Shown: piece by piece, positions 4,984 through 24,795 of the stretch
How positions within the stretch are numbered: the stretch's first letter is position 1
How the letters are laid out: each line of letters opens with the position of its first letter
NCBI GenBank assembly: GCA_002394605.1
Contig: DGUI01000027.1
Coordinates: 2,161 to 66,160, forward strand
DNA length: 64,000 bases
Direction of reading: 5' to 3'
DNA from: Mageeibacillus sp. UBA4314
GTDB lineage: Bacteria; Bacillota; Clostridia; Saccharofermentanales; Saccharofermentanaceae
Made by a program: the position numbers and the translations under genes
Notes under the pieces: model-generated
Database searches by the model: none
Told to the model about the DNA's origin: nothing
What the model saw: only the letters and a program-made list of their open reading frames with translations

Positions 4984-7698
4984 ATGAAAAATCTCTCAAA
5001 TTCAGCAAAATTTGAGGCAAAAAAACTGAAATTACAGCAAAGACGGGAGGATCTGCCCCAGTATCTGCTGGCGTTTCTTTTTCCGATGCTTACCGTAATA
5101 GCGGCTTTTGCCATCCTCCAGTGCTATCCTTTCGGCAACAGGACAATGCTGACGGTGGATCTCTATCACCAGTATGCACCGTACCTTGTGGCATTCAGGG
5201 ATAAGATCCTATCGGGGGACAGCCTGCTCTATTCGTGGAATGACGGTCTGGGCAATGAGTATTATGCTGCCTTTGCAAACTATACTGCCAGCCCTTTGAA
5301 CATCTTCTGCATATTTTTCACTGCCAAGACGATGCCGGTATTCATAGCATTCATAACTGCAGTAAGGGCCGGACTTGCGTCACTTACCATGACGATATTC
5401 CTCAAGGCGAACGATAATAACAAGCTCGACAACATAACCGTCGTATTTGCGGCTTCATATGCGCTCTGCGGATGGTTCGTCACGGATTTCTGGAACATAA
5501 TGTGGTGCGATGCCATGATCCTCCTTCCGCTTCTGTGCCTGGGACTTCGCAAGATGTTCCTCCAGAACAGCTGGTGGCTTTATATGGTTACTTTGGCAGT
5601 TGCAATCGCGACCAACTACTTCACGGGATACTTCCTTTGCCTGTTCCTCATATTCTTCGCCCCGATCTACTACATCATGCTCGCAGTTCCTGCAAAGGAC
5701 AAGACCGTTAAGAACAGATTCTCTGTCCTTAATCTAATAAAAGCAGCGGGCAAGTTCGGGTGTGCGAGCGTCATAGCAGGTGTATCGACGGCTTTTATCA
5801 CGATTCCTACATACCTGATCCTGCAGCACTGTTCCGCAACTGGCGGAGAGTTCCCCAAGGATTTCAACCTTACGGGTAATCTCTTTGATTTTCTCGGCAG
5901 ACTGATGGTCTCAGCGAGTCCTTCCATAAGGGACGGCATGGCAAATGTTCACTGCGGCATCGTAATAGTCTTTATGCTGCCCCTGTTCTTCATGCTCCCC
6001 AAGAAGTCCGGCATAGGACTCCGGCATAAGTTCGGTTTTGGAATAGCATTGGCGATCCTGTATCTGAGCTTTACCAACAGGACACTTAACTATATCTGGC
6101 ACGGCATGCATTTCCCGAATCAGATCCCTTACAGGGAATCGTTCCTCATGCCGTTCGTGCTTGTATTCATGGCATATCTCACGATAAGGAGGCTCAAGAG
6201 CATCCCGGCATCTGCAGTCGGTGCATCGATCGGAGGATCGTTCATCTATCTCGTGCTCTATGAAAAATTCGGCGAAGGGGAAGAGGGATATATCCAGATA
6301 GGTCTGACATTCCTGTTCATAATAGTCCAGGGCATCGCACTGAAGATAATAACGGACGGCAGGAAGTCAGGTCTGTTCTGCGAGACGCTGCTTACCGTCA
6401 CGATGCTCGTCGAGACTCTTGTCGGGAGCGTCGTGTCGATTGCGCTCGTTGCAAAGAACGAAGGCTTTGTCGGATATGATTTCTACGGCAAGAACTATCA
6501 GATCATAAAGGAATATGCGGATTCAGTCGAAGGAAGCGAAGGACACAGGTCTTTCGAGAGGAGCGAGCTGTTCCCCAACAATATCTGCAACATACAGTCA
6601 CTTTATAACATCAAGGGAATATCGATATTCTCATCAACGACGAGGGAGAGCTTCGTTAAGTACAACAGGAATTTCGGGTTCCACAACAATGGCATAAACG
6701 GCTTCAGGAATGCAGGTATAACCCGCCTCACGGCGTCCCTCTTCGGAGTTAGGAACCTTATTACGATCGAGGACACCAAAACGGTACCGCCTGTCTTTGA
6801 AGTCGAACATTCAGAAGGCGATGTTAAGGTGTACGGCAATCCTGATGCGCTTGCAGCAGGGTTTATGGTGGATGAGAGTGTCACAAAGTATGAGCCGAGC
6901 TGGAATGATTCCAATGCATTCCGCAAGACGAACGAGTGGCTTAATTCCATGGGTGTAAAAGGTGATACATACGAACAGATCGACATGGAGGCCATCGAGT
7001 CAGACAAGATGACAACGTCTTCAAGCGGCGGAAAGATGCTGTCATACTCCATCGTGACCGGCGTTGAGAAGCCTTCGTTCAAGATCTCGATAGATGATGC
7101 TTCCAGGGATGCTGACATATATGTCTATGCCAGTGCCAGCTGCGGCGGAACAGCGACCGTCAAGGTTGGAGATAAGGATGAGTATTCCTTTGAGATAAGG
7201 AGTTATCAGACCATATGTCTCGGGAAGTTCACCGGCGAGAAGATTACTCTCAATATCAAGTATTCCGGCAATCCCGGAAATTCGGTCATCGTATATGCGG
7301 CACAGCTGACTGATGCTGCTTTCCACAAGGCGATCGATACTCTGGGCAGGGATCAGCTGAATGTAACTGAATACAGTTCAGGCTATCTGAAGGGGCACAT
7401 TGATGTTACAAGGGACGGGCTCATGTTCATGTCGGTACCCTACTCAGAAGGATGGAGTGCCAGAGTTGACGGTACTGATATAGAGATAACGCCCATCGGC
7501 GATTCTTTTATCGGGATCAAGCTCGGCAAGGGCGGACATGATGTGGAGATTTCCTACATGCCTGCAGGATTAAAGGCAGGGATCGTGATTTCAGGCGTAA
7601 CCGTTGTGATAATGGCGGCTGTGATAGCCGTTACGGAGCTGATGAGAAGAAGGGCAAGTATCGATGAGACTTCTGAACAAGAAAAAGATCAGGTTTGA
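4984..7698 (+). CDS. YfhO-family GT-C polytopic membrane glycosyltransferase (copy 1)
   Basis: DLYHQYAP loop motif, many TMs, FPNQIPYRESF, C-terminal SVPYSEGWSARVDG + TM typical of YfhO. Confidence 0.88.
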   Translation: MKNLSNSAKFEAKKLKLQQRREDLPQYLLAFLFPMLTVIAAFAILQCYPFGNRTMLTVDLYHQYAPYLVAFRDKILSGDSLLYSWNDGLGNEYYAAFANYTASPLNIFCIFFTAKTMPVFIAFITAVRAGLASLTMTIFLKANDNNKLDNITVVFAASYALCGWFVTDFWNIMWCDAMILLPLLCLGLRKMFLQNSWWLYMVTLAVAIATNYFTGYFLCLFLIFFAPIYYIMLAVPAKDKTVKNRFSVLNLIKAAGKFGCASVIAGVSTAFITIPTYLILQHCSATGGEFPKDFNLTGNLFDFLGRLMVSASPSIRDGMANVHCGIVIVFMLPLFFMLPKKSGIGLRHKFGFGIALAILYLSFTNRTLNYIWHGMHFPNQIPYRESFLMPFVLVFMAYLTIRRLKSIPASAVGASIGGSFIYLVLYEKFGEGEEGYIQIGLTFLFIIVQGIALKIITDGRKSGLFCETLLTVTMLVETLVGSVVSIALVAKNEGFVGYDFYGKNYQIIKEYADSVEGSEGHRSFERSELFPNNICNIQSLYNIKGISIFSSTTRESFVKYNRNFGFHNNGINGFRNAGITRLTASLFGVRNLITIEDTKTVPPVFEVEHSEGDVKVYGNPDALAAGFMVDESVTKYEPSWNDSNAFRKTNEWLNSMGVKGDTYEQIDMEAIESDKMTTSSSGGKMLSYSIVTGVEKPSFKISIDDASRDADIYVYASASCGGTATVKVGDKDEYSFEIRSYQTICLGKFTGEKITLNIKYSGNPGNSVIVYAAQLTDAAFHKAIDTLGRDQLNVTEYSSGYLKGHIDVTRDGLMFMSVPYSEGWSARVDGTDIEITPIGDSFIGIKLGKGGHDVEISYMPAGLKAGIVISGVTVVIMAAVIAVTELMRRRASIDETSEQEKDQV

Positions 7699-9940
7699 TC
7701 TGCATTTGATACTGGCTTTCGTTCTGCCTGTCGTGATCATGGCTCTTGCCTTTGCGGCGGCGCAGATCAAGCCGGGCAGCATCCTTCCCGAAGAAGCAAC
7801 ATTAAGGTATTCCGAGATGGATGATGATATCCTTTGCTCTGTCGACGGGCAGATCAGTTCCTGGCTTACGGTAAGGGAATCGTTTGCTTCACAGGATAAG
7901 CTCGAAGGCATGGGAGGTGTCGAGCTGCTCATTACGGAGTATATGGATCCGTTCTTTATCCTGTCCCTGGGACTGCCCGTAAGCTGGCTGCAGGTCTTCT
8001 ACATGGTCTGCTATTTCCTGCGGTTCGGTCTCGCGGGGATCACGATGTTCCTTTTGTTGGACTGCTGCATAAAGGGTGAACGCAGTTTCAGCCTGTTCAT
8101 GGCAGTACTCTATTCTGTCTCGGCGGTCGCAATGCTGTCAGCCGGATCTGTATCCCTGATGAACCTTTATATCCTGTTCCCGCTGTTCCTGAGATACATG
8201 GATGCGCTTATTACGGGCGGGTCCTTTGTATCAGCAAGATACATACTTGTCAGCATGCTGGTGTACATATCGGGCGTTACAGGTCTTATCCAGGGCTGGA
8301 TCATGACCATATTGTTCGGAGTCTTCATATCGGTATTAAGATACGGGAAGTTCACGGCAGTATTCAATTCCCTGTCGCGGATAGTGATAAACTCGTTCGT
8401 TGGGGTTATCCTGACGGGGATCGTTAACATCCCGAGGCTTATGTCCATCAGTTATGAGAGTATTACGCCGGAGATCTTCGAAGAGGGAGAGATGAGATAT
8501 ACTTTCTTCGACCTTGTCTCATCCGTCGCGAGCGGCAGATCCGTAGATTCATCTGATGTCCTGGTACCTGCGGTCTATATTGGCATATTTACCGTCATGC
8601 TCGTTATCCTGCTGTTCCTTAACAGATATGTCCCGGTCAGGATCAAAGCTGCAGTTGCGGTGCTGACGGTGATCATATATGTCACATGTTCTTATACGGC
8701 AATAAGTGATGTGCTGTCGTTCACAGGCATCTCAACCGCATGTCAGGCTGCCCGTCTTGGAGGACTTACTGTCATGCTCTTTGTCAGCGCAGGCGTTTCC
8801 CTTAAGAACATCAGCGGCCTTTCCAAAGGAAGCATATATGCTTCCATTCTGTTCATGATCGCGGTCGTATGCATAGCAAATAATTCGGAGAATATCTACG
8901 GATACATGAATTACCAGCTCTTCATGACGGTAATATCAGCCATAGTTTCCGGTGTCTTTCTGCTGTCATATCTGGAAGGTGCAAAGAGATCTTATATGAC
9001 GGCTTTCTTTGCTGCCGCATTCATCGCTCTTATCATGAACTGCGGATATGTGTTCATGATGTCGGATGTCTCGCCTGAGGATTATGAGTGCGTAACATAC
9101 GAGTCAGGGACCGGAGATCTCCTGAGTATGCCTTCGAGGATACCGGTATTAGGTGACAGGGTCAGCTATGTTGTCGTTCCTTCTGACGGTTTTACCCCTG
9201 AGGATGGGGATGATCCTGCACTGGCTGTCAACAAGATCGCAAAGTGCATTCAGATCGATGAAGTATTCTCAGGATATGATACGGAGGAGATCATCAATAA
9301 CGGTTTTGAGTCTGAAGACGGCAGATATGTGCTCAAGGAGGATGAAAGCGAAATGATCCTTGGCATTGACGTTGACGACGGCGAAGACATATATGTCAGT
9401 TCAGGACTTAATGTGCCTATTACGATGGCGGAGATGCGCTTCTCCCTGTATGATGAGCCGGATGATCATTTCTTCCACGGACCGTTCCTCGAATGCATAT
9501 CTTATGACGGCAACACTTTTGAGGTCCAGCTGTTAGGCGGCAAGTCAGGCGGCAAGTCCGGACGTATCGGAGTATATACCCTTAACTCACACGAGCTTGG
9601 CAAACTGAAGATGGTCACAAGGCAGTTAGGTTCCGGCAAGTTTACGGTCAGTTCGGATATGGCCGGTGATAATAAAGGTTCAAAAACTCTCATTACAGGA
9701 ATCCCTTATAATGATAATATTAAAGTAAAGGTGAATGGCAGGAATGTTGATACCGCTGATTATCTGAACAGGGTCATCGCGGATATCGGGGATGTCGGAT
9801 CCGCACCGGTTGTTGAGATCACAGCTGAACTGCCCGGCATCTTTGCCGGAACGGTATTGTCTCTTGCCGGATTGGCGGTCTTTGTCTGGATCGCCTTCCA
9901 TAACCTCAGAGAAGGAGAGGAGAATGTGAGCCATGCTTAA
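7664..9940 (+). CDS. Divergent YfhO-like membrane protein (copy 2)
   Basis: Same TM layout and C-terminal 'ITGIPYNDNIKVKVNG...TM' as YfhO, but the N-terminal D-x3-Q motif is not recognisable; TTG start overlaps copy 1. Confidence 0.65.
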   Translation: MRLLNKKKIRFDLHLILAFVLPVVIMALAFAAAQIKPGSILPEEATLRYSEMDDDILCSVDGQISSWLTVRESFASQDKLEGMGGVELLITEYMDPFFILSLGLPVSWLQVFYMVCYFLRFGLAGITMFLLLDCCIKGERSFSLFMAVLYSVSAVAMLSAGSVSLMNLYILFPLFLRYMDALITGGSFVSARYILVSMLVYISGVTGLIQGWIMTILFGVFISVLRYGKFTAVFNSLSRIVINSFVGVILTGIVNIPRLMSISYESITPEIFEEGEMRYTFFDLVSSVASGRSVDSSDVLVPAVYIGIFTVMLVILLFLNRYVPVRIKAAVAVLTVIIYVTCSYTAISDVLSFTGISTACQAARLGGLTVMLFVSAGVSLKNISGLSKGSIYASILFMIAVVCIANNSENIYGYMNYQLFMTVISAIVSGVFLLSYLEGAKRSYMTAFFAAAFIALIMNCGYVFMMSDVSPEDYECVTYESGTGDLLSMPSRIPVLGDRVSYVVVPSDGFTPEDGDDPALAVNKIAKCIQIDEVFSGYDTEEIINNGFESEDGRYVLKEDESEMILGIDVDDGEDIYVSSGLNVPITMAEMRFSLYDEPDDHFFHGPFLECISYDGNTFEVQLLGGKSGGKSGRIGVYTLNSHELGKLKMVTRQLGSGKFTVSSDMAGDNKGSKTLITGIPYNDNIKVKVNGRNVDTADYLNRVIADIGDVGSAPVVEITAELPGIFAGTVLSLAGLAVFVWIAFHNLREGEENVSHA

Positions 9941-10922: not shown

Positions 10923-10981
10923 CTTATTAACAATTTGTTCACACTTTGTGCAAAAAAAATTAGCAAATTTGAAATCTTTTG

Positions 10982-11010
10982 TTGAAATTTGTTACAGGAT
11001 GTTTTAGAAT
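10982..11010 (+). promoter_or_regulatory. Sigma70/SigA-type promoter of the large pilin-like gene
   Basis: TTGAAA-N17-TAGAAT upstream of ATG 11065. Confidence 0.6.
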
Positions 11011-11064
11011 ACGGATAACAAATATAAAAAGGCAAACTATACATACGAAGGGAAGGTACTTCAT

Positions 11065-13020
11065 ATGATCAGAAAGTCAAAGATAAATGGTGACAAGCAA
11101 GGTATCATTCTTGTTATGGTCCTCCTGATCGTTGCAATGGCGATGATCTTCATCTCTGCGGCTCTGTTGCTTACAAATTCAACAAGGAGCAGACTCTACA
11201 ACAACGCAGAAGAGAGCCAGGCAAGACTTACGGTTACATCTGCTGCCGAGGCTTTATATCAGGCTCTCGAGATGCAGGAGATCAGTGACGATACGCTCGG
11301 AGCTCTTGCTGCAGGATCCGGTTCTACGTTGACATTGACAGTAGATGACGGAACAGTTGCAGGTATGGGTACCGCAGCTGATAACTGCACGAAGGTTCAT
11401 ATCTACGAGAAGAAGGTCAGCTCTGTTGACTATGTTTACATGGATTTCACAACAACGATCGGTCCCAAGTCCGAGAATGTCCGTATGATCCTCAAGGCTC
11501 CTACGCCTCCGGTCAAGACTAACCTCTTCAGCACAGTCATGGACCTCGCAGGTGCTGCAGGCGACCAGAACCTCGCTCAGTTCAATATCGGTGAGGGCGG
11601 CGGATCCAAGAAGGACAATGTTGTTGTCGTTCGTGGTTCAGGTAAGAAGTATGTTATCGACCGTGCAAACCAGGATATCTATTCAACTCATATCTTCGTT
11701 GGTGAGACAAGTTCAACATCGATCGATGTATGGCTCAGAGACTCATCATACTACGGCGATCTCGTATTCTACGGCGATTATGCAACACTTCACTGGGATC
11801 TCCAGCCTAAGATCAAGGGTAATGTATATTTCCTCGGCAAGTCTTCCGGTACTGACAAGAACGCTTTTACAGGTGTTGACAGCACATCAAGGACTTTCGG
11901 TGAGAACTCAGCTTCATGGGTATTTGTTAACCGTGTAGCAAATGGTGACACAGACCGTGTTGAGAACATGCTCAAGAACAAGACTTGCGTTCTCCTTCTT
12001 GACAGCTCAAACGACACAGGTGCAAGTGTAAGCTGGGACGATGACAATGCTTCCGGAATCTCTGCTTCTCAGAAGTCAACATGGAAGTCAAGTTATACAG
12101 CAGGTTCTTCCAAGATCACAAATCTCAAGAAGGCCATCAAGGATTACATGAGTTCAACATTTGACGGTGACGGAGCTTTCCCTACGACCGATCAGGCTTT
12201 GAACACTGTACATGTAAACAAGTCAAGCTCGGGAGCTGCTCAGTACACAGCTTCTAACTTCCTCAACACGTTTGCATATTCAGCTTCACATAAGACATTC
12301 CTCCCTGCAGGCAACTACAGGATCTATGATTCAGGTTCAGGTTCTCACAGCATGAACACATCAGCCAAGAACGGTCAGGGAGACATCAAGTATGTATTCC
12401 TTAACGGTGCATTTGATTACAACATCTACTTCGGCGCTGACTACGACATGACCGGTGTACTCTTCGTACAGCTTGGCGGTACAAAGAATTCTATCTGCAA
12501 CTTCATCCTTGAGAAGAATTGCGACCTGACACTCGGCTATTCGAACTACACAAACAATGATTACTACGGTACCGGTTTTGTATCAGTAAGTTCTTCAGGT
12601 TATTCAACTCCCGAGGCTATGTACACGGCATTTAGCACAATGAAGATGGGTTCAACAACAGCTTCTGTATATGACGGAACAAAGAGACCTTATATGTACA
12701 TCTACGGTATCGGCGGTACAAACGGCAACCATGTAACATTCGGTAACAGCGGCGGTGCAAGATGCGTAGTTGAAGCTTATGTTGGTCTGTTCGAGGATTC
12801 ATATCCCGGTAAGTCCATACTTGAGTTCTCAAATCAGCCTGTATACTTCTACGGCAGAATCCAGGCAGCTAAGTTCATCGCAGATACGAACAGCAACAAT
12901 AGCCACATCTACTATTGTCCTGACCCTAACTCTGATGATGATGATTCACCTAAGCCTGCAAGGACCGGTTACTCAGTATACGATGTTATCTACTACTACG
13001 ATTTCTCATCTCCTACATGA
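11065..13020 (+). CDS. Large PilX/GspK-type minor pilin (putative tip pilin/adhesin)
   Basis: Class III signal KQG|IILVMVLLIVAM with no Glu5, followed by 'EESQARLTVTSAAEALY' (PilX-N pattern); large Ser/Gly/Asn-rich beta-type C-terminal region. Confidence 0.78.
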   Translation: MIRKSKINGDKQGIILVMVLLIVAMAMIFISAALLLTNSTRSRLYNNAEESQARLTVTSAAEALYQALEMQEISDDTLGALAAGSGSTLTLTVDDGTVAGMGTAADNCTKVHIYEKKVSSVDYVYMDFTTTIGPKSENVRMILKAPTPPVKTNLFSTVMDLAGAAGDQNLAQFNIGEGGGSKKDNVVVVRGSGKKYVIDRANQDIYSTHIFVGETSSTSIDVWLRDSSYYGDLVFYGDYATLHWDLQPKIKGNVYFLGKSSGTDKNAFTGVDSTSRTFGENSASWVFVNRVANGDTDRVENMLKNKTCVLLLDSSNDTGASVSWDDDNASGISASQKSTWKSSYTAGSSKITNLKKAIKDYMSSTFDGDGAFPTTDQALNTVHVNKSSSGAAQYTASNFLNTFAYSASHKTFLPAGNYRIYDSGSGSHSMNTSAKNGQGDIKYVFLNGAFDYNIYFGADYDMTGVLFVQLGGTKNSICNFILEKNCDLTLGYSNYTNNDYYGTGFVSVSSSGYSTPEAMYTAFSTMKMGSTTASVYDGTKRPYMYIYGIGGTNGNHVTFGNSGGARCVVEAYVGLFEDSYPGKSILEFSNQPVYFYGRIQAAKFIADTNSNNSHIYYCPDPNSDDDDSPKPARTGYSVYDVIYYYDFSSPT

Positions 13021-13059
13021 TAGGATGAGCACATCAGAGAGTTAAGCACAAGCAAGAAC

Positions 13060-13087
13060 AACGGGCTGTCAGAGATGACAGCCCGTT
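13060..13087. terminator. Intrinsic terminator between convergent genes
   Basis: AACGGGCTGTCA-gaga-TGACAGCCCGTT perfect 12-bp stem. Confidence 0.8.
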
Positions 13088-13115
13088 TATCATTGTCATA
13101 GGATCAGAAGGAGCC

Positions 13116-13547
13116 TTATTCTATCGTCAGGAGATAAGCGCCGGAGTCTTTCAGCCAGACAAGAGTCTGGAACATCTCTGAGGCAGATATGCCGATCATG
13201 TCGGAAGGAATGGATATTCCAAAAAGAGAACAGCTCTCCGTACAGACGTATACGGCATCAGTCTTGCCGGAAGATACAAGGTCTTTGAACTTACCGCTAA
13301 GCACATTATCCGGACAGATCAGCTTTGTACCGGTGTCTATGAGATAGATACTGTCAATATGTTTATTGGCAGTAATGAGCGAATCAAAGAGTTCGCGGAG
13401 AAGATCCCTGCCATGCTTGTTGTCAGATGAATAATGATCGTGCTTTATGAACAGGGATATCCCGTAAGAACTGCTTTCTGCTTCGAGTTCATATTCATCC
13501 TTGACCAGGAACCCGAGATCATTTGCTTCCTTTGGATTGTTTCTCAT
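13116..13547 (-). CDS. DsrE/YedF-C-like hypothetical protein
   Basis: 'GRDLLRELFDSL...IYLIDTGTKL...VYVCTESC' resembles the DsrE-type domain of YedF; ATG 13547 has AGGAG RBS. Confidence 0.5.
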   Translation of the reverse strand: MRNNPKEANDLGFLVKDEYELEAESSSYGISLFIKHDHYSSDNKHGRDLLRELFDSLITANKHIDSIYLIDTGTKLICPDNVLSGKFKDLVSSGKTDAVYVCTESCSLFGISIPSDMIGISASEMFQTLVWLKDSGAYLLTIE

Positions 13548-14280
13548 CAAAATCACTCCTGTCTGAAGCGAGGAATCTCATTGAACGCTGAATGGCATTC
13601 TTAGAGTTACCCCACGGTTTGTCATTATTGCGGTAATCAAACTTCAGTGTGAACCACTCGACATCATCGATCAGTTCGCTGAAGTATTTCCCGTCATTCT
13701 GATAAAGAGCTTCCACAAGATCTGCAGCATCGTTCTGGGAGAGCTTGGCAGCTGCCCTTAAGAGCATGGCCGTGTGGGGAAGGCAGTGGGATTTCGCTCC
13801 CGCAAACTTCTCCTTAAAACCGTCTTCATGCTTAAACATATAAGTGATCACTTCAATGTAGTGACCCATTGAATCGTTAAGCTTGCTGCAGATCGGGCAT
13901 TCCTTTGTGCGCTTATCGATCTTATCTGCCAAAGCTGTAAGTTTTGATTTATAATCAGAACTTCTGCCCTTAAACAGTGATGACTTTCCGGGAATAGAAT
14001 CCTTCATCACATTCATCAGGTCGTCATTCACATCCTTAAGATGAGTATGGAGCATGAGCCCGAGGCCGAGCCTGTTCGCTTCCCGCCTGTTGAGCTTTCC
14101 CAGGTGATCCGGGCAGAATCCCGTCTTATTGGTGATCTTACGGGTATCAGGTTCCATCAGTGAAGGTCCCAGATAGTAATCAAGTTCGTTGGTCTCCGCC
14201 TTCGAAGCGAGCTCGCATAGGGGACAGTCACATTCTGACTGGTATGCATCGTTTACGGGGATCATGTATATTCTTTCCAT
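13519..14280 (-). CDS. DUF6062-family conserved clostridial protein
   Basis: IPVNDAY..ECDCPLC, MEPD.R..TN..GFC..H, CPIC, CLPH, KFDYRN motifs. Confidence 0.75.
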   Translation of the reverse strand: MERIYMIPVNDAYQSECDCPLCELASKAETNELDYYLGPSLMEPDTRKITNKTGFCPDHLGKLNRREANRLGLGLMLHTHLKDVNDDLMNVMKDSIPGKSSLFKGRSSDYKSKLTALADKIDKRTKECPICSKLNDSMGHYIEVITYMFKHEDGFKEKFAGAKSHCLPHTAMLLRAAAKLSQNDAADLVEALYQNDGKYFSELIDDVEWFTLKFDYRNNDKPWGNSKNAIQRSMRFLASDRSDFDEKQSKGSK

Positions 14281-14295
14281 TAACGCCTCCTCTTA

Positions 14296-15363
14296 TTACG
14301 TGTCAGCATGAACAAGTCTGTCGGCACGGACATTTACTTCGTTTATGGTGATGGACGTGAATTCCTCTACCGCAGCGCCAACCCTCTGCTGAGCCTGCGA
14401 GAGGACATCCTGTGCGTCAAACCCGTAGAATATGGAGATATTCAGGCTTATCGCGACACCGTATGTCTTCTTCTCTGTCTTGAAAGACGTGACCTCAGCA
14501 ATACCCGGGATGTCCTTAAGGACTATCTTGATGAGATCGAGAAGAGCATCATCCGATATCGAATAAGAACCGAGGGAAGAGAAGGTAGGTCTTACGACTG
14601 TTCTCTCGGATTCCGGTGCGATCGGCGTTATGCCGCGCTCGCGGTCGAGTCTCTGACGGAGCTTGCTGAAAGGATCAGAAAAATATCCGGAGAACTCGTG
14701 CTTGATTTCCATGCTCGGGACGGGGATCGTGTGCATGCCTTCAGACAATCTTGTGTTGCGTGCCAGACGTCTCTCTTCCTCGGTCGAGACATCCTCGATC
14801 CTGATGAGCATCGAAGGCTGGTTGAGCCATAGGTTCGTGCATATCTTCTCGAGCATTGAATCTGAAGTCCCCAAGATCATTAGGGCCTTCGGCATATTCT
14901 CGACCAGAGCCCTGCGCATGACCTCTGATCTGGTGGGATCTACAAATATTGCCTGCCTGACCGACTCGATCTTGGTCGGTGCCTTCTTGGCAGACGTTCC
15001 TGCGACTATCCTGCTTCCGTTGATCAGAAGTCCGTCATCGATTATGTAGTAGATCTCATTCTCGCCGGCGACCTTGATGGCCCTGGTGCTCTTGCCGGTT
15101 CCGGATTGACCGATAAAGGCAACAACTGCAATGTTCGACAGAGCATCGCGCGTCAATTGCTCGCTTGACAGTATCTTCTCGACATTGCGTTCGGATTCAT
15201 AGGAGTTGTTTCCGCCTGAAGCACCGGTCTTGTCAAATCTTCTCAGGGTATCCCTAAGTTCAGGGAGGAGCACACGTCTCCAACCGGCAGCGGTCTCTCT
15301 GGATTCTGCCGGGTTGTGAGAAGCATTGTGTTTGCCGTCAGAAGTATTTGCCATAGCTATCAA
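14296..15363 (-). CDS. P-loop NTPase domain fused to Asp23/Gls24 domain
   Basis: Walker A GQSGTGKS; C-terminal 'G.YSISD...V.I.L.I.I.YG.....V....Q..V...VE..T...I..VNV' Asp23 pattern; start could be ATG 15354. Confidence 0.75.
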   Translation of the reverse strand: MIAMANTSDGKHNASHNPAESRETAAGWRRVLLPELRDTLRRFDKTGASGGNNSYESERNVEKILSSEQLTRDALSNIAVVAFIGQSGTGKSTRAIKVAGENEIYYIIDDGLLINGSRIVAGTSAKKAPTKIESVRQAIFVDPTRSEVMRRALVENMPKALMILGTSDSMLEKICTNLWLNQPSMLIRIEDVSTEEERRLARNTRLSEGMHTIPVPSMEIKHEFSGYFSDPFSKLRQRLDRERGITPIAPESERTVVRPTFSSLGSYSISDDALLDLIKIVLKDIPGIAEVTSFKTEKKTYGVAISLNISIFYGFDAQDVLSQAQQRVGAAVEEFTSITINEVNVRADRLVHADT

Positions 15364-15374
15364 AGATCAGCCGG

Positions 15375-16100
15375 TCAGTTATCCCAGCTGTGGTAGTATT
15401 CCTGGATGTCTTCGTTCTCGTCCATCATCTCGAACATCTTCTCGAGCTGGGCTACCGTATCCTCATCTGTGATCTGCGTCAATGTCGTAGCGACAGGGCC
15501 GAGGCTCGAATCAACAAACGTATACCCCTTGGCTTCAAGGGCATCCTTGACCTCGTAATAGCTTGAAGGATCCGTTACGACTTCATAGTACTCGTCCTCA
15601 GCGACGAAGTCGGCTGCTCCGCACTCCAGGCTGTCGAGCATTACCGTATCCTCATCTTCAAAGTCCTCTCTTGAGATAAGGATGCTGCCCTTCTCTTCGA
15701 AAAGGAATGATACGCTTCCCGATACGCCCATGTTGCCGCCGTTCTTATCGAAAATATGCCTCAGATCAGCAGCAGTCCTGTTACGGTTATTCGTAAGCGC
15801 CCTGACCATGACTGCGACTCCGCCGGGACCATAACCTTCGTATGTGATCTCTTCGTAATCGTCGCCTTCGCCTGCACCGGCCGCCTTCTTGATCGCCCTG
15901 TTGATATTGTCATTGGGCATATTGGCAGCCTTTGCCTTAGAAATGATATCCTTAAGCCTCGAGTTGCCGTCAGGATCAGGGCCTCCGGCCTTGACTGCAA
16001 CGGCGATATCCTTTGCGATCTTAGTAAATACAGCACCCTTTGCTGCATCTGACGCTTCCTTCTTGCGGCGGATGTTGCTCCATTTGGAGTGACCTGACAT
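15375..16100 (-). CDS. yebC: YebC/PmpR family protein
   Basis: MSGHSKWSNI, YEGYGPGGVA, GGNMG..GSV.F.F hallmark motifs. Confidence 0.96.
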   Translation of the reverse strand: MSGHSKWSNIRRKKEASDAAKGAVFTKIAKDIAVAVKAGGPDPDGNSRLKDIISKAKAANMPNDNINRAIKKAAGAGEGDDYEEITYEGYGPGGVAVMVRALTNNRNRTAADLRHIFDKNGGNMGVSGSVSFLFEEKGSILISREDFEDEDTVMLDSLECGAADFVAEDEYYEVVTDPSSYYEVKDALEAKGYTFVDSSLGPVATTLTQITDEDTVAQLEKMFEMMDENEDIQEYYHSWDN

Positions 16101-16107
16101 AGTAAAA

Positions 16108-16956
16108 TTACCTCCCTGTTAAAAACATATAAATAATATGAACGACCGACACGGCCTGAAGGATACAGACTGTGGCGATCCCAAAATATTTATCGGATCT
16201 TGTGTTCTTTGTTACGGCTCTTGCGATCGAGTAGGAAAGACCATAGATGGCAAAATCAAGCCACTTGCTCGTAAACTGGTAATAGTAGCCGAACATGAAT
16301 ATCGATGAAAGCGTTATGTCCATATAGACATCGCCCTTCGTGTACTTCTTCTTCATCAGCAGCGCAAGCAGGAAGCAAACTGCGCATACGGCGCAGATCC
16401 TTCCTATCGTTACCCCGAGATTGATGAGTATCTCAACGATGCCTCCTTCGAGGATCCCGAAAGCGGGGGGAAGGATAACTGCAATGACAACGCATATGAC
16501 TGCCCAGACTGCAGTTACTATGTGGTTTGAACCGGTATCGTAGTAGATCATCATGGAAGATACGCAGGCTGCAAGGAGCAGGACATATGAGATAAAGTAG
16601 AGCAGGAAGAACGTCTGCTGGTTATATCCGAGATTGATGATAGCTGCGTAAGCATATTTGTAGACCCCGACCGACGCGATCAGGAAGAGAACGCCGGTAA
16701 AACTCTCGATCTTGGTATATCTCGAAGCGATGGGAGCGCCGCAGTACCTGCACTTGCCCTTGAGCGTCGCCCAGCTTATGATCGGTATCAGATCCTTGGC
16801 TCCCAGTTTATGTCCGCACGTCATACACATGGAATGTCCCTTGACTATCGTTCTTCCGGCAGGGAGCCTGTATATCACAACATTAAGGAAACTGCCTATG
16901 ATCACGCCGAAAACGCCGGAAATGAAAATAAAATAAACTGCCAGAAAAATATCCAA
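16108..16956 (-). CDS. pilD: Prepilin peptidase/N-methyltransferase
   Basis: GSFLNVVIYRLP, C..C...L...DLIPI.SW..LKGKCRYC; TTG start after GGAGG; C-terminal peptidase part divergent. Confidence 0.85.
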   Translation of the reverse strand: MDIFLAVYFIFISGVFGVIIGSFLNVVIYRLPAGRTIVKGHSMCMTCGHKLGAKDLIPIISWATLKGKCRYCGAPIASRYTKIESFTGVLFLIASVGVYKYAYAAIINLGYNQQTFFLLYFISYVLLLAACVSSMMIYYDTGSNHIVTAVWAVICVVIAVILPPAFGILEGGIVEILINLGVTIGRICAVCAVCFLLALLMKKKYTKGDVYMDITLSSIFMFGYYYQFTSKWLDFAIYGLSYSIARAVTKNTRSDKYFGIATVCILQAVSVVHIIYMFLTGR

Positions 16957-17086: not shown

Positions 17087-17189
17087 TTGATAAATATTAG
17101 GCTCGATTATTGTGTCGAGGTGTCTCCATTTGCGCCTCCCCATGTTATTGACCTATTATAACAGGCGTAGCCTTAAACCAGGAGGAAGT

Positions 17190-18857
17190 ATGAAGAGATT
17201 AGGTGATATCCTCATCGAGAGTGGATTCCTGTCTGCGGCTGAGCTTTCAGAGGCTCTGACCAATTCGAAGGAAACCGGCAAGCGACTCGGAGAGGTAATC
17301 GTCGATATGGGCTTAATGTCCGAGTTTGATATTCTCCGAGCAGTGTCAAGCCAGTACGATTACCCGATTATTGACTTGACCAGTATCGAGATCGACCAGA
17401 AGGCAACATCCCTTTTCGACGAGAAGTATTGTGTCGAGAACTGCGTTTTACCGATAGGTTTTGATGGTGACAATCTTGTAGTTGCTATCGATGACCCTAT
17501 GAACATCCTTATAATGGATGATCTCCAGTTCAGGTCAGGCTATAACGTAACCCCGATGCTTGCGACCAAGACATCTATCCTCGAGGCTGTTAAGGTTAAT
17601 TACGGTAAGGAGCAGGCAGCTCAGGCAGCCGAAGAGCTCGGCATCGACATGAGCCAGGATCTTGAAGGTCTTGATTCCGAATTGTCAGATGCGGTTAACT
17701 CAGCTCCTGTTGTTAAGCTCGTAAACTCAATGATCGATTACGCTATCAGAGCAGGATCATCAGATATCCATATCGAACCTATGGAAGACAGGGTTCGAGT
17801 CAGGATAAGAATCGACGGCGTCATGCAGGAAGTCATGAGCAACCCGCTCGCTGCAAAAGATGCCATCACTACCAGGATCAAGATCCTCGGCGGTATGAAC
17901 ATCGCTGAGAAGAGGATCCCTCAGGACGGCCGTATCAGAACAGAGATCAACGGCGAACCCGTGGACATGCGTGTATCCATCCTTCCTTGTATCACAGGTG
18001 AGAAGACGGTTATCCGTATCCTTGCAAAGAACGATGGCAACCTCAACCGTAAGTTCCTCGGCATAAGCGATCACAATAATGCGCTTATCGATAAGATCGT
18101 TAAGGTCCCTCAGGGCGTTTGCCTCGTATCAGGACCTACCGGTTCAGGTAAGACAACAACACTTTATACTATCCTTTGTGAGAAGAACACACCTGAAACT
18201 AATATCATTACAGCTGAAGACCCTGTCGAGATCCGTATCCCCGGACTTAACCAGTGTCAGATCAATGCTAAGGCCGGAATGACATTTGCTTCAGCACTCC
18301 GTTCTATCTTGCGTCAGGACCCTGATATCGTACTCGTCGGAGAGATCCGTGACGGTGAGACTGCCGAGATCGCGATGAGAGCTGCTATCACGGGTCACTT
18401 GGTTTTCAGCACCATCCATACGAATGATGCTGTATCTTCAATTAACCGTCTCATAGACATGGGTATCGAGCCTTACATGGTATCTACTGCCGTTGTAGGC
18501 GTCATCTCCCAGCGTCTCGTCAGAAGGATCTGTACCAATTGCCGTAAGACATACGAACCCGATGAGGCTCTCAAGGAACAGCTTCAGCTTGAAGATGGAC
18601 AGAAGCTCTATATGGGTGAAGGCTGTACTGACTGCAATGGTTCAGGTTATAAGGGCCGTATCGCTATCCACGAGATCATCTGTATGACCAAGGGCATGAA
18701 GATGCTTCTCGAGAAGCGTGCTACTGAAGAGGAAATGAGAGTCCTTGCCGTATCAGAAGGTACACAGATGCTCTTCGATTCTGCAAAGGCGCTTGTTCTT
18801 GAAGGTATCTCGACTGTTGACGAGATGAACAGAGTTGCATACTCAATTGACGGATAA
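17190..18857 (+). CDS. pilB: Type IV pilus assembly ATPase PilB (GspE family)
   Basis: N-terminal MshEN-like 'RLGDILI..G.L...EL..AL' and 'RLGEVIV'; ASDIHIEP, GPTGSGKTTT, EDPVE, LRQDPDIVLVGEIRD; ATG 17190 after GGAGG. Confidence 0.95.
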   Translation: MKRLGDILIESGFLSAAELSEALTNSKETGKRLGEVIVDMGLMSEFDILRAVSSQYDYPIIDLTSIEIDQKATSLFDEKYCVENCVLPIGFDGDNLVVAIDDPMNILIMDDLQFRSGYNVTPMLATKTSILEAVKVNYGKEQAAQAAEELGIDMSQDLEGLDSELSDAVNSAPVVKLVNSMIDYAIRAGSSDIHIEPMEDRVRVRIRIDGVMQEVMSNPLAAKDAITTRIKILGGMNIAEKRIPQDGRIRTEINGEPVDMRVSILPCITGEKTVIRILAKNDGNLNRKFLGISDHNNALIDKIVKVPQGVCLVSGPTGSGKTTTLYTILCEKNTPETNIITAEDPVEIRIPGLNQCQINAKAGMTFASALRSILRQDPDIVLVGEIRDGETAEIAMRAAITGHLVFSTIHTNDAVSSINRLIDMGIEPYMVSTAVVGVISQRLVRRICTNCRKTYEPDEALKEQLQLEDGQKLYMGEGCTDCNGSGYKGRIAIHEIICMTKGMKMLLEKRATEEEMRVLAVSEGTQMLFDSAKALVLEGISTVDEMNRVAYSIDG

Positions 18858-18875
18858 TATTAGGAGGTAACAAAA

Positions 18876-19994
18876 GTGGAAGAAGGTTTTACATTGACAA
18901 TGGAGGCCATCCTGGCCGAATCAGTCAGAAGGGGAGCGTCTGATACGCATATCACCGTAGGTCTCCCCCCGATGATCCGTGTTGATGGTCAGCTGATGCC
19001 TTTGAGCAAGCAGATCCTGACACCTGCAGATACAGAGTATCTCTGCAAGTCGATGATCGATAAGTCAAGGCAGCAGTATCTGAACGAGAGAGGAGAGATC
19101 GACTTCTCGTTTGTCGTTCATGATTACAGCCGTTTCAGATGCAACATCTACAAGCAGCGCGGATCTTATGCACTTGCTGCAAGAACGATCACCAACGAGA
19201 TCCCTACATGTGAGAAGCTGGGACTTCCGGCTCTCTTCAAGGAGTTGGCAGAGAGACCCAGAGGACTCATCCTTGTTACCGGTCCTACGGGTTCAGGTAA
19301 GTCAACGACACTCGCTGCCATGATCGGACATGTAAACAGCGTTAAGAAGTGTCATATCCTTACACTTGAGGAACCTATCGAGTACCTCCATATGCATGGC
19401 GAGGCTATGATCAACCAGAGAGAGATCCACGAGGATACACTGTCATTTGCTAACGCATTGAGAGCTGCTCTCCGTGAAGACCCTGATATCATCCTCGTAG
19501 GTGAGATGCGTGACCTTGACACGATCAGTACAGCTATTACCGCGTCAGAGACAGGTCACCTTGTTATGTCAACACTCCATACGTCCTCAGCTGCTGATAC
19601 GGTCAACCGTATCATCGACGTATTCCCGCCTCATCAGCAGGATCAGGTCAGAGTTCAGCTCGGTACCGTTCTTGTTGCAGTTATCTGTCAGACGCTCGTT
19701 CCCAGGATCGGCGGCGGACGCTGTGCTGCTTTCGAGATCATGATCGCTAATGACGCCGTACGTAACAACATCCGTGAAGGTAAGACGTATCAGATCGACA
19801 GTACCATCGCAACAAGCTTGTCGATGGGCATGTGTCCTCTTGACTTCTACCTCGCAGAACTCGTTAAGAGGAAGATCATCTCCAGAGAGACTGCTATCTC
19901 CAGATGCAGATTCCCCGATGATCTCAAGAGATATATCAACAATGTTGGAGGACCCGCTAACAGTCCTCTGTTCAGCGATCTGGATTTCCAGTGA
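18876..19994 (+). CDS. pilT: Type IV pilus retraction ATPase PilT
   Basis: GPTGSGKSTT, TLEEPIEY, ALREDPDIILVGEMRD, ETGHLV..TLH, NNIREGK (AIRNLIRE-like). Confidence 0.95.
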   Translation: MEEGFTLTMEAILAESVRRGASDTHITVGLPPMIRVDGQLMPLSKQILTPADTEYLCKSMIDKSRQQYLNERGEIDFSFVVHDYSRFRCNIYKQRGSYALAARTITNEIPTCEKLGLPALFKELAERPRGLILVTGPTGSGKSTTLAAMIGHVNSVKKCHILTLEEPIEYLHMHGEAMINQREIHEDTLSFANALRAALREDPDIILVGEMRDLDTISTAITASETGHLVMSTLHTSSAADTVNRIIDVFPPHQQDQVRVQLGTVLVAVICQTLVPRIGGGRCAAFEIMIANDAVRNNIREGKTYQIDSTIATSLSMGMCPLDFYLAELVKRKIISRETAISRCRFPDDLKRYINNVGGPANSPLFSDLDFQ

Positions 19995-20030
19995 TAACTT
20001 AAGTTAAAATTTTAGGAGGAGGATAAAGAA

Positions 20031-21233
20031 ATGCCTAATTTTAAATATCAGGTAATCGATGCAGCGGGCAAGACGTCTACCGGTGTCATTGATGCTGCCA
20101 GCATGGCTGACGCGTCAAGGAAACTCCGTGCAGACGGCAAGTATGTCGCATCGCTTTCACTTGATAAAGGTGCCGGATTTCTTAATTTCGGTGGCAAAAG
20201 GAAGTTAAAGACAAAAGAGCTCGTTCTTATTACGAGACAGTTGGCTTCACTGCTTTCTGCGGGCATAACGATCATCAGGGCTTTGGACATGTTGTATCAG
20301 CAGGTTGATACAAAGAATGCGAAAGCAATCGTTGGTGAGGTTTATGAATCCATTCAGGGCGGCCGTACCATGTCTGAGGCTTTCAAGGAACAACAGGGAC
20401 TTATTCCTAACATCATGACCAGTATGGTCGCTGCTGGTGAAGAGTCCGGTCGTCTCGACGAAGTTATGGAGAGACTTGCTGAGCACTTCCAGAAAGCTCA
20501 GAAGCTCAAGAACAAGCTGAGTTCAGCAATGGTTTACCCGAAGATCCTTGCGTTCGTTACTTTCGCAGTATCCTGGGGTCTTCTTACATTCCTTGTACCC
20601 AGCATCACGGCAACTATCGCAGACCTCGGCGGTAAACTTCCCGGTCTTACGAAAGCGATCATCGCTGTCAGTGACTCTCTGACGCATTTCTGGTATGTAT
20701 ATCTTGCAATTGTAGTATTCCTGGTTGGCGGCTTCAAGATGTGGAGAGCTTCAGAGAAGGGGCAGTATCAGTGGTCTTGGCTCATGATCCATATGCCTAT
20801 CGTCGGCAACATGACTAAGATGACGGCTACTGCGCAGTTCACAAGAACAGTTTCCACACTCCTTAAGTCTGGTATCTCCGTTCTTCAGGCTGTTGAGATC
20901 ACAGAGAAGTCTCTCGACAACGTTATCTTGGAGAAGAAACTTTCTGATGCGAGGATCGAGATCAGAAAGGGTGCTGCACTTTCCAAGTCTATCAAGGGCA
21001 TCGAAGAATTCCCTCCGATGGTATACGCTATGACGGCTATCGGTGAGGAGTCAGGTACTCTCGATACGATCCTTGACAAAGCAGCAGATTACTTTGAAGA
21101 TGAAGCAGACGCTGCTACAACAAAAATGACAGCAGCTCTTGAACCTATTATGATCATCGTTATGGCCGTTATCGTCGGACTTATCGTCGGTGGTATCGCT
21201 ATCCCGATCTTCAATATGGCATCGTTCATCTAA
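20031..21233 (+). CDS. pilC: Type IV pilus platform protein PilC (GspF family)
   Basis: Two T2SSF domains: RQLASLLSAG, AGEESG.LD..., MVYP, GEESGTLD, LEP. Confidence 0.95.
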   Translation: MPNFKYQVIDAAGKTSTGVIDAASMADASRKLRADGKYVASLSLDKGAGFLNFGGKRKLKTKELVLITRQLASLLSAGITIIRALDMLYQQVDTKNAKAIVGEVYESIQGGRTMSEAFKEQQGLIPNIMTSMVAAGEESGRLDEVMERLAEHFQKAQKLKNKLSSAMVYPKILAFVTFAVSWGLLTFLVPSITATIADLGGKLPGLTKAIIAVSDSLTHFWYVYLAIVVFLVGGFKMWRASEKGQYQWSWLMIHMPIVGNMTKMTATAQFTRTVSTLLKSGISVLQAVEITEKSLDNVILEKKLSDARIEIRKGAALSKSIKGIEEFPPMVYAMTAIGEESGTLDTILDKAADYFEDEADAATTKMTAALEPIMIIVMAVIVGLIVGGIAIPIFNMASFI

Positions 21234-21259
21234 TGTTAATTATTGAAAGGAGATAAATA

Positions 21260-22378
21260 ATGGATTTTTCATCATTTGGAAAGGCTTCATCTGAATTTGT
21301 TATAGACTGTTCCAGTTCCGATCTTAAGCTTGCAGTTGGATCATACAACAGGAAAACAGGTCTTGTGTTGCTCGATAAGGTTGGTGTAGTTCCCCTTGAG
21401 AACGACGCTATCAACGACGGTGCGATCGCAGACTCTTTCGGTGTTGTTATGGCTCTGAAGCACGCTATTGCAAGATTGGATATCAAAAACAGAGGAGCAA
21501 TAGTTACAACAGAGGGTGCTTTCATGCACACAAGAGATCTTGAGCTTCCCAAGGCTAAAGCTGAGCAGCTCAAGGATATGGTTAAGTACGAGGTTATGGG
21601 TCAGGGCAACAACAGAGAGATGACCATCGATTACATCATCTACGGTACAGCTCTCGATGAGGAAACAAATGCCCCTAAGTATAAGATCAGAGCAACAGCA
21701 GTTCCTGTTGATACGATCGCTGAGTACAGAGAATTCCTGAAAAACATGGATCTGACTCCCATCGCGCTGGACGTTAACCCCAACGCTATCAGGAAGCTCT
21801 TCTCTTCCGGTATCATCAACGGCAATGTAAACATCTCTCAGTCAACACTCCTGTTGGTTGAGCTTGCCGGTGCAACTACAACAGTTACGGTTCTTGATAA
21901 GGGCTTCCCGGTCCTCTCAAGAAGACTTGCTTTCGGTCATGCAAACATCCGTCAGGTTGCTGAGTCTGTTAAGAAGATGCAGGGCGGCGGAGACAATCAG
22001 TCTTCACTGGCTAGACGTCTTAACATCACAAAGTCTGACGCTGAGTCATTGATCCCTATCGAGGATATCGATGTATGGCATGAGACAGTTGCAGAGATCC
22101 CTTCTCTGCAGAGCGCTGTAAACGCATACTTCAAGAGCCTTGTTGAGACTGTTAACAGAACGGCACAGTTCTCAATTTCCAAGTTCCATATTGACAGCAT
22201 TAGCACATGTTTCCTCTATGGATCAGGTGCAGGTTACAAGAAAATCGACAAGGAACTGTCAAGACAGCTTGGCACACAGGTTGAGATCCTCAACACTCTC
22301 AGCACTGTCGCAGGTCCTAAAGATTTCATGCTGCCCCAGTTCGTAAATTGCTGTGGTGCACTTATTCGTGAAGATTAA
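21260..22378 (+). CDS. pilM: Pilus assembly protein PilM (actin-like)
   Basis: IDCSSSDLK..., 'AIVT..G...TR.LELP', GATTT, FLYGSGA; position after pilC. Confidence 0.85.
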   Translation: MDFSSFGKASSEFVIDCSSSDLKLAVGSYNRKTGLVLLDKVGVVPLENDAINDGAIADSFGVVMALKHAIARLDIKNRGAIVTTEGAFMHTRDLELPKAKAEQLKDMVKYEVMGQGNNREMTIDYIIYGTALDEETNAPKYKIRATAVPVDTIAEYREFLKNMDLTPIALDVNPNAIRKLFSSGIINGNVNISQSTLLLVELAGATTTVTVLDKGFPVLSRRLAFGHANIRQVAESVKKMQGGGDNQSSLARRLNITKSDAESLIPIEDIDVWHETVAEIPSLQSAVNAYFKSLVETVNRTAQFSISKFHIDSISTCFLYGSGAGYKKIDKELSRQLGTQVEILNTLSTVAGPKDFMLPQFVNCCGALIRED

Positions 22379-22393
22379 GGAGGAGGAAATAAA

Positions 22394-24674: not shown

Positions 24675-24699
24675 TAGTTAGACTACTAGCTGACTAATG

Positions 24700-24728
24700 A
24701 CACGGCGGGGCAACCCGCCGTGTTTTTT
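24700..24728 (+). terminator. Intrinsic terminator after pilin 1
   Basis: ACACGGCGGG-gcaa-CCCGCCGTGT followed by a T run. Confidence 0.9.
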
Positions 24729-24766
24729 ATCAATTCATAAATTTTTAACAATTTGTTAATTTATTG

Positions 24767-24795
24767 TTGAAAAAAGTTGAAACACCAAGTATAAT
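24767..24795 (+). promoter_or_regulatory. Promoter of the pilin 2-3-4 operon
   Basis: TTGAAA-N17-TATAAT. Confidence 0.75.

Follow-up and report, generated by a model that had tools for sequence, protein, structure and literature searches.

A probable K-type minor pilin with a ComZ-like beta-solenoid, encoded in a multi-allelic block beside a type IVa pilus locus of rumen Clostridia

What is a 651-residue protein of no named family doing beside the genes of a type IV pilus, and is it a part of that pilus? The question is raised by a stretch of 64,000 nucleotides from Mageeibacillus sp. UBA4314 (GenBank assembly GCA_002394605.1, contig DGUI01000027.1, positions 2,161 to 66,160 of the forward strand; hereafter the window, to which all coordinates refer unless another contig or locus is named), in which a reading of the letters alone, here called the original prediction, had described a detached and separately transcribed K/X-type pilin with a large novel passenger region. 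We conclude that the protein is probably a minor pilin of the K/X type (the GspK, PilX, ComGG class) belonging to the adjacent type IVa pilus and carrying a ComZ-like solenoid, and the best-supported reading is that of a sequence-orphan family with the known solenoid-pilin architecture of ComZ and PilX, found here in monoderm rumen Clostridia. New, as far as sequence comparison tells, are two things: the gene has a promoter-like site of its own, and most of it belongs to a replaceable block with sharp limits and many alleles, to which a small co-varying gene also belongs. The open reading frame (ORF) is present as described, begins at the first start codon past the preceding stop, and contains all three of the segments singled out earlier (YYGDLVFYG, IKGNVYFLG and FYGRIQAAKF); because its family is real and conserved, it lies far beyond a chance ORF. 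Its parts, numbered by residue, are as follows.

11065 to 13020, plus strand: coding sequence of the putative K-type modular pilin, 651 residues (ORF, family alignment, profile search, AlphaFold2 model, Foldseek)
11065 to 11103, plus strand: basic leader, residues 1-13, with a predicted prepilin-peptidase site after Gly13 (K11 and G13 at least 90% conserved or invariant)
11104 to 11271, plus strand: alpha-1 helix, residues 14-69 (helix 11-69 in both models; 71% mean family identity; GspK match over residues 12-72)
11323 to 11496, plus strand: four-strand antiparallel sheet, residues 87-144 (DSSP strands 87-91, 107/109-118, 121-132 and 135-144 in both models)
11539 to 12912, plus strand: predicted beta-solenoid passenger, about residues 159-616, some 460 residues (strand-rich, block pLDDT, the predicted local distance difference test, mostly 80-96)
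12064 to 12273, plus strand: helical insertion in the solenoid, residues 334-403 (helices 334-346, 349-363, 375-381 and 396-403)
12973 to 12996, plus strand: conserved C-terminal strand, residues 637-644, YSVYDVIY followed by YY (a strand in the model; Y643 and Y644 invariant)

The case for a pilin starts at the N-terminus, MIRKSKINGDKQG|IILVMVLLIVAMAMIFISAALLL, in which a basic leader up to Gly13 is followed by 23 hydrophobic residues. Among 25 sequences of the family Gly13 does not vary, and among 40 it is at least 90% conserved, while the mature position +5 is occupied by Met, not Glu, and by V, I, L, T, M or F in relatives. The NCBIfam model for GspK (NF037980) matches residues 12-72 of the window protein (E=0.0016) and the same N-terminal stretch in 37 of the 40 members (E<1, best E=2.2e-4), below its cut-off, and the non-Glu5, class III signal of K/X type that had been read from the letters is in this way borne out, with sub-threshold scores. 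Weak matches to HpsB, a cyanobacterial hormogonium polysaccharide secretion pseudopilin, occur in 7 of the 40. The N_methyl (PF07963) and IV_pilin_GFxxxE (TIGR02532) models do not match the protein, nor would they be expected to, because K-type pilins lack F1 and E5. When a profile of the N-terminal domain was compared with the PDB, the two best sequence matches, albeit weak (E=0.19-0.26), were full-length geopilins whose cleavage-site Gly aligned with Gly13. The N-terminal 75 residues are near invariant in the family alignment, where K-Q-G and a hydrophobic tract precede T..TR.R.Y....SQARLTVTSA.E...AL..QEI.D, and alpha-1 consists of a hydrophobic half without Glu5 and a second half bearing the conserved T..TR.R.Y....SQARLTVTSA.E motif; toward the C-terminus, YGR, a Cys-Pro motif and a Tyr-rich terminal stretch are conserved as well. 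Mean identity of the family to the window protein varies along the chain:

Residues 11-75: 71%
Residues 76-146: 42%
Residues 147-330: 34%
Residues 331-410: 23%
Residues 411-560: 30%
Residues 561-651: 40%

An AlphaFold2 model of the whole protein, made with 40 sequences (pLDDT 83.9; predicted template modeling score 0.74), has one continuous 59-residue helix (residues 11-69), a short helix (75-82), the four-strand sheet and then the solenoid; a separate model of residues 1-150, made with 25 locus-derived sequences, has the same helix and four-strand topology (pLDDT 78.7). In a Foldseek search with the full model, the only significant target was ComZ of Thermus thermophilus (6QVI; E=4e-6, probability 1.0), followed by solenoids of the ice-binding or antifreeze type (E=0.1-2.4; target-normalized template modeling (TM) score 0.37-0.41) and by the C-domains of tapirins (E=0.14-3.5), so that the comparison with ComZ suggested by the original prediction returned a beta-solenoid passenger and ComZ alone as a significant match. 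ComZ was not among the matches when the family profile and that of the N-terminal domain were searched against PDB sequences. The passenger is thus new in sequence but not in fold, and its announced novelty holds for the sequence only.

The resemblance to ComZ extends to overall design. In ComZ, a triangular solenoid of about 380 residues interrupts a GspK-like pilin domain ahead of its last strand, and a long helix-bearing loop joins the ends of the solenoid; the protein has been argued on steric grounds to occupy the pilus tip and is also missed by PilFind (PMC6561018). Both proteins combine a hydrophobic helix lacking Glu5 with what in the window protein are a putative pilin domain, a predicted large solenoid and a helix-bearing connection, and strand 637-644 may complete the pilin sheet, as the final strand does in ComZ. 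The helical insertion at 334-403, which falls in the most variable segment of the family (residues 331-410), is comparable to the helix-bearing loops that join the solenoid ends in both ComZ and tapirins. The differences are equally clear: ComZ binds DNA and is encoded in a diderm competence locus, next to its partner PilA2 (PMC6561018), whereas the window protein comes from a monoderm, is acidic and hypervariable among closely related species, and is encoded by a gene that is probably transcribed separately from those of the pilins.

The family to which the protein belongs has gone without a name. Pfam holds no family for it, with noise-level matches only across the 40 members and ten distant representatives, NCBIfam yields sub-threshold matches only, and no catalytic family in either collection was matched. 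Of the 62 relatives that a word-seeded search returned, all from Clostridia of the rumen and gut, each was either unnamed or annotated as "hypothetical", and an exhaustive profile search of 1.84 billion representatives returned 205 clusters at 50% identity, mostly full-length proteins of about 570-810 residues. Among species-representative genomes, 45 records contain it; their sources are ruminants, horses and digesters, and their labels read Saccharofermentans, Mageeibacillus, "Ruminococcaceae bacterium" or Clostridiales. Loci were recovered from cultured relatives too, namely Ruminococcaceae bacterium YRB3002, AB4001 and YAD3003. When 121 genomes of the order were sampled (31 of the window's taxonomic family and 90 from three other families), the pilin family was present in all 31 of the former and in none of the 90 from the sister families, a distribution identical to that of orthologous PilM (62-79% identity); 16 sister-family genomes have a PilM that is only distant (23-36% identity). 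The gene is single-copy in its own genome. Genome G032 has two tandem copies, and a single in-frame stop interrupts one copy in four genomes, for which pseudogenes, phase variation or assembly errors are possible explanations.

The pilus genes that accompany it are the following.

16108 to 16956, minus strand: pilD-like gene, first of a minus-strand operon running toward the pilin gene (A24_N_bact, E=5e-31)
17112 to 24360, plus strand: machine genes pilB, pilT, pilC, pilM, pilN and pilO (family matches; identity of 92-97% to relatives with which the pilin shares only 39-44%)
24474 to 26232, plus strand: four Glu5-bearing pilins of 66, 71, 194 and about 188 residues, none of K type

Downstream of the 651-residue protein's gene, pilB starts after about 4.1 kb, across the minus-strand operon (13116-16956) with its five genes, DsrE-like, DUF6062, Asp23-like, YebC and pilD-like. 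The distance of some 4 kb across an opposite-strand operon had been described correctly; detachment is too strong a word, because the intervening operon begins with a pilD-like gene and the pilin gene, convergent with a pil-linked operon, is not truly outside the locus. On another contig of the same genome (C56, 13423-13788), the gene of a canonical A24 prepilin peptidase stands alone; its product has the motif GMGGGDVKL. The gene order YfhO, YfhO, RNase_T, pilin, small gene, DUF6062, Asp23-like, YebC, (PilD-like), PilB, PilT, PilC, PilM recurs in about 36 of the 45 species loci and is kept even at 27-30% pilin identity; the pilD-like gene is absent from most of the more distant loci. In a subclade of four genomes (G001-G004; loci L012, L014, L016 and L024), the pilin gene follows YfhO and RNase_T and is itself followed by unrelated genes, PilC being on another contig, and orthologous PilC was found elsewhere in six of the seven genomes without nearby pil genes, namely these four and three others. 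By eye, two of the genes near the pilin in this subclade (an ORF at locus positions 12133-13521 and a neighbor) look MurT/GatD-like.

The pil operon itself leaves a position for such a protein. The ORFs of the 66- and 71-residue pilins and their N_methyl matches were confirmed, all four operon pilins carry a GFxxxE motif, and two of them are of about 190 residues. For the pilus clusters of C. difficile and other clostridia, a tip complex of PilU, PilV and PilK has been proposed (PMC9556784). Because all four operon pilins have Glu5 and none is K-type, the 651-residue protein is the only candidate found for the K position.

Several observations weigh against placing the protein in the pilus. 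The GspK match scores 18 bits against a curated cut-off of 130, and PilX_N (PF14341) matches just 3 of the 40 members, at E of 0.1 or worse. The superposition on ComZ is globally poor (TM 0.25-0.32, root-mean-square deviation about 20 Å, 10% identity), and the match may be driven largely by the solenoid. Foldseek with the model of residues 1-150 gave nothing significant, with no pilins among the top 50 matches listed, although it is no clear negative, pilins in the PDB mostly lacking the first half of alpha-1; the pilin-like N-terminal domain expected earlier therefore has the helix and the four-strand sheet of two models on its side and the Foldseek search of that domain against it. The adjacent pilD-like gene shows no match to the A24 catalytic domain. 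Finally, the tightest linkage of the pilin gene is to YfhO and RNase_T, not to pil genes.

Such observations would suit a different protein, a signal-anchored beta-helix adhesin or polysaccharide-active enzyme of the cell surface, held by an uncleaved helix, independent of the pilus and tied to the YfhO glycosyltransferases encoded upstream. The gene follows YfhO-YfhO-RNase_T in 41 of the 45 species, even where the pil operon is on another contig, and is separated from the YfhO/RNase_T operon by no plus-strand terminator; yet the strongly conserved promoter region described below belongs to the pilin gene itself, and co-occurrence with the orthologous pil machine is perfect. Beta-helices are common in enzymes that act on carbohydrates, and the weak Foldseek matches include pectate lyase and AlgG, but no catalytic family was matched and the sole significant structural match, ComZ, is a pilin. 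That all pilin-model matches are sub-threshold, and that the N-domain search gave no pilins, must be set against an invariant Gly after the basic leader, a 59-residue helix and a post-membrane motif, which fit K-type pilins and which an anchor would not need, and against an operon otherwise lacking a K-type pilin. We hold a pilus-independent surface protein to be unlikely, and continue with a K-type pilin.

The YfhO genes have a context of their own. YfhO-RNase_T-pilin is the most conserved adjacency in the pilin family, and three YfhO-family membrane proteins flank the pil region of the window (7664-9940, one upstream of it, and 26808-29387), the last followed by what appear to be a 236-residue ORF resembling GT2 glycosyltransferases (29387-30097) and a small membrane protein (30094-30471). 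The set resembles extracytoplasmic glycosylation of the CsbB/YfhO/GtrA type and, by that analogy, might serve to modify the pilins or the tip protein.

Does the gene have its own transcription unit, with promoter and terminator, as was claimed? The features concerned are these.

10924 to 10943, plus strand: conserved upstream element TTATTAACAATTTGTTCACA, a candidate operator (20 nt; unique in the window)
10982 to 11010, plus strand: promoter-like TTGAAA-17-TAGAAT, upstream of the pilin gene (10/12 consensus matches; hexamers conserved)
11042 to 11067, plus strand: small hairpin whose loop contains the Shine-Dalgarno sequence GGAAGG and whose 3' arm contains the start codon (-6.8 kcal/mol when folded as RNA, z = -2.5)
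13060 to 13087, no strand assigned: strong 12-bp G+C-rich hairpin between the convergent genes, a possible bidirectional terminator (-25.6 kcal/mol, z = -6.8)

Across six species whose pilins are 34-61% identical, the 140-bp intergenic region upstream of the gene is largely invariant in alignment and both promoter hexamers are essentially so, with one change in the -10 hexamer of one species. Between the window and locus L060, that of the closest relative, whose flanking genes have a synonymous divergence (dS) of 1.1-2.0, 138 of 142 positions of the upstream intergenic DNA (10923-11064) are identical, and this intergenic stretch outdoes coding sequence in conservation. The small hairpin is invariant in sequence in the six species and hence offers no covariation to score. 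Such conservation supports a dedicated, regulated promoter, and that half of the claim thus gains from the comparison of species; the terminator fares less well, since the hairpin at 13060-13087 was scored by the terminator scan on the minus strand only, its plus-strand T-tail being poor. The scan detected no plus-strand terminator between the upstream RNase_T gene and the pilin gene either, so read-through into the latter is possible. A regulatory motif common to the promoters of the pilin gene, pilB and the operon pilins was sought and none was found, and TGTGMAAAAAA, considered as such a motif, was dropped.

The second question that the locus raises is whether the gene is exchangeable between lineages. 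Two further features enter here.

About 11300 to 13500, no strand assigned: hypervariable, putatively replaceable block, comprising the pilin gene from about codon 80 and the small convergent gene (sliding DNA identity against loci L008, L011 and L007)
13116 to 13556, minus strand: DsrE/YedF-like gene of 146 residues, co-varying with the pilin (DsrE and YedF match it weakly)

The window and loci L001 and L003 encode PilB and PilT that are 96-97% identical, PilC and PilM 89-93% and YebC 94-95%, and the window pilin is only 44% identical to that of L001 and 39% to that of L003. Sharper still are the comparisons of L019 and of L033 with L040, which bear out the allele diversity that the original prediction proposed to look for: the pilins are only 42-43% identical between loci whose flank and machine proteins are 96-100% identical (RNase_T, DUF6062 and Asp23-like 96-98%; YebC, PilB and PilT 98-100%), while L019 and L033 share pilins at 85%. 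In DNA, L019 and L040 are 90-100% identical upstream of the pilin gene and over its first 100-300 nt, about 40-50% over the rest of that gene and the small convergent gene, and back to 80-95% within DUF6062, and in the comparisons of both L019 and L033 with L040 sharp breakpoints bound the replaced DNA, a block of about 2.2 kb. Identity of the 146-residue gene tracks that of the pilin (Spearman 0.79 over 210 pairs) and drops to 50% where DUF6062 is 97% identical. This gene, which lies inside the replaced block and is as variable as the pilin, is apparently cytoplasmic and could be either a cognate partner or a hitch-hiker.

The allele of L040 is 43-47% identical to its ten closest sampled alleles, and the picture that these comparisons suggest is one of many old allele classes within a single conserved frame. 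Within a class, selection appears to be purifying, the diversity lying between classes: the window and L060 pilins (94% identical) have a ratio of nonsynonymous to synonymous divergence (dN/dS) of 0.067 overall and of 0.04-0.08 in every segment, and this pairwise comparison gave no sign of positive selection. Their dS of 0.62 is below that of the flanks (1.06-1.98), except in codons 331-410, where it is 1.65; a pilin dS below flank dS is compatible with recent sharing of the allele, and the mosaic of values suggests that recombination occurred recently. Recombination is probably anchored in the conserved coding region of alpha-1 and in DUF6062, in which case lineages could swap tip specificity without touching the machine. 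A cassette on a mobile element was considered and rejected in view of the fixed position, the lack of transposase or repeats and the universality of the gene in the family. The earlier idea of an exchangeable cassette is therefore upheld as allelic replacement with sharp breakpoints in near-identical backgrounds, at a fixed locus.

What would such a pilin do? We infer a course of events in which a prepilin peptidase would cleave the protein after Gly13, alpha-1, lacking Glu5, and a small pilin head would take their place at the top of a priming complex together with the two operon pilins of about 190 residues, and the solenoid, because it is too bulky for the shaft, would cap the tip of the filament. 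The shaft pilins would be headless helices of 56-61 residues, and since they lack heads the solenoid would be the obvious specificity-bearing surface, an adhesin pulled by PilT retraction. An adhesin or specificity role at the tip is probably the most economical reading, considering the headless shaft, the exposed variable passenger and the PilT motor.

For the ligand, the closest guide is provided by tapirins, proteins that bind cellulose and whose deletion abolishes rapid attachment of cells, and in which the N-terminal third is conserved and the C-terminal beta-helix, whose ends a helix-bearing loop connects, is divergent (bioRxiv 10.1101/359786). Like the window protein, tapirins (Calkro_0844, 4WA0; Calhy_0908, 6N2C; NF051896) come from Firmicute degraders of plant biomass and are linked to a type IV pilus locus; their genes lie inside the pilus operon, whereas the window pilin gene stands apart and converges on the pilD-led operon. 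The tapirin N-terminus (…KKVDG|SVLIVVIIV…) is itself Glu5-less and matches PilX_N (E=0.006) and ComGG (E=0.017), and the tapirin gene of C. obsidiansis (L059:10001-11929) closes its type IV pilus operon, starting 8 nt after that of a 282-residue GspJ/ComGE-like pilin. By N-terminus and operon slot, tapirins look like K-type tip pilins. No paper combining "tapirins" with "minor pilin" was found, and bioRxiv 10.1101/359786 never calls tapirins pilins.

Could the window protein then simply be a mesophilic orthologue of the Caldicellulosiruptor tapirins, a true cellulose-binding member of that family? Among PDB sequences, the family profile matches a tapirin C-domain best (4WA0, E=0.014), and hhalign aligns the same stretch (P=0.003) as well as the N-termini (P=0.007), but at probabilities of only 5-11%, the stretch in the C-domain having 11%. 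Both proteins are of about 640-650 residues and combine a PilX_N-like, Glu5-less N-terminus with a beta-helix that has a helix-containing insertion or loop, the tapirin gene is last in its pilus operon, and the genome of the window organism has five GH5 genes; against these likenesses, Foldseek matches to tapirin structures (E=0.14-3.5) are far weaker than that to ComZ, and the NF051896 model (cut-off 600 bits) matches none of 40 family members at E<1, real tapirins scoring 588-927 bits. Orthology in this strict sense is very unlikely. Neither hhalign nor the NF051896 model establishes the window family as tapirins, and because homology is not established we do not file it as such, retaining the K-type pilin with a ComZ-like solenoid as the preferred description.

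By analogy with tapirins we infer that the ligand is most likely a polysaccharide or plant-fiber surface. The passenger is acidic throughout the family (median isoelectric point (pI) 5.1, median net charge -10.5, 12-13% aromatic residues; pI 5.3 and 13% in the window protein), and this acidic, aromatic character, the allelic diversity, the fiber-degrading lifestyle with its GH5 genes and the tapirin analogy together favor a carbohydrate or variable surface over DNA. A DNA receptor like ComZ, with the pilus serving mainly in competence and the solenoid binding extracellular DNA for uptake through ComEC, is the natural counter-proposal, given that the one significant structural match, ComZ, is a DNA-binding protein without which transformation fails (PMC6561018), that the genome encodes ComEC and the PilT retraction ATPase, and that type IV pili of C. 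difficile bind extracellular DNA (PMC9556784). We find it quite unlikely: besides the acidic, aromatic-rich passenger, a uniform ligand is hard to reconcile with many allele classes that are 42-47% identical in near-identical backgrounds, and homology to ComZ cannot be detected in sequence (10% identity). The presence of ComEC and of GH5 genes in the genome does not by itself discriminate between DNA and fiber ligands.

How the putative pilin relates to others follows from the same features. K-type minor pilins of the GspK/PilX/PilK/ComGG kind occupy the tip position in a priming complex of the GspI/J/K type, and in GspK what is inserted between beta-3 and beta-4 is alpha-helical rather than a solenoid. 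GspK, PilX of P. aeruginosa, PilK of Neisseria and C. difficile, and ComGG share with the window protein the class III signal without Glu5 and the conserved post-membrane helix motif, although matches of GspK/PilX-type models to the family are sub-threshold and confined to the first 60 or so residues. Cyanobacterial PilX proteins have the same pilin-plus-solenoid architecture as ComZ, have been argued to be tip pilins and proposed to replace the PilY1 cap, and are encoded by genes that are sometimes away from that of the partner PilV, yet strictly co-occur with it (PMC13759059). These solenoid PilX proteins, including the PilX of the hps exopolysaccharide (EPS) system, belong to another phylum and envelope and have no significant sequence similarity to the window pilin, and cassette-like replacement of alleles is not mentioned in PMC13759059. 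PilB and PilC of Streptococcus sanguinis are, like it, monoderm type IVa minor pilins with a grafted adhesion module, but their modules (vWA and lectin) sit on canonical Glu5 pilins encoded inside the pil locus and are neither K-type nor solenoid (PMC8179133, PMC6916266).

If the protein is indeed the K-type pilin that we take it to be, the solenoid-pilin architecture of ComZ and PilX would extend from Thermus and cyanobacteria to monoderm Firmicutes, and the likely specificity-bearing tip could be named for a pilus with helix-only shaft pilins, in abundant but little-studied Clostridia associated with fiber in rumen and gut. The display of tapirins on cells may find a possible account in the same terms, as the terminal K-type pilin of their own pilus operon. 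The sharp replacement block in a frame that is otherwise 97-100% identical amounts to a natural experiment on the part of a pilus that determines what it binds, and the allele classes supply divergent adhesin modules with which binding to plant polysaccharides may be compared. We raise, as a tentative and rather doubtful extension, the idea that the window family and the tapirins might be two branches of one unrecognized class of K-type tip pilins in fiber-degrading Firmicutes, with the beta-helix as polysaccharide adhesin, and that in rumen bacteria of the Saccharofermentans type the adhesin and its small companion gene might form an ancient multi-allelic cassette shuffled by recombination at the alpha-1 and DUF6062 anchors. 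Were this true, co-existing species equipped with the same pilus motor would attach to different fiber surfaces, or escape pilus-specific phages.

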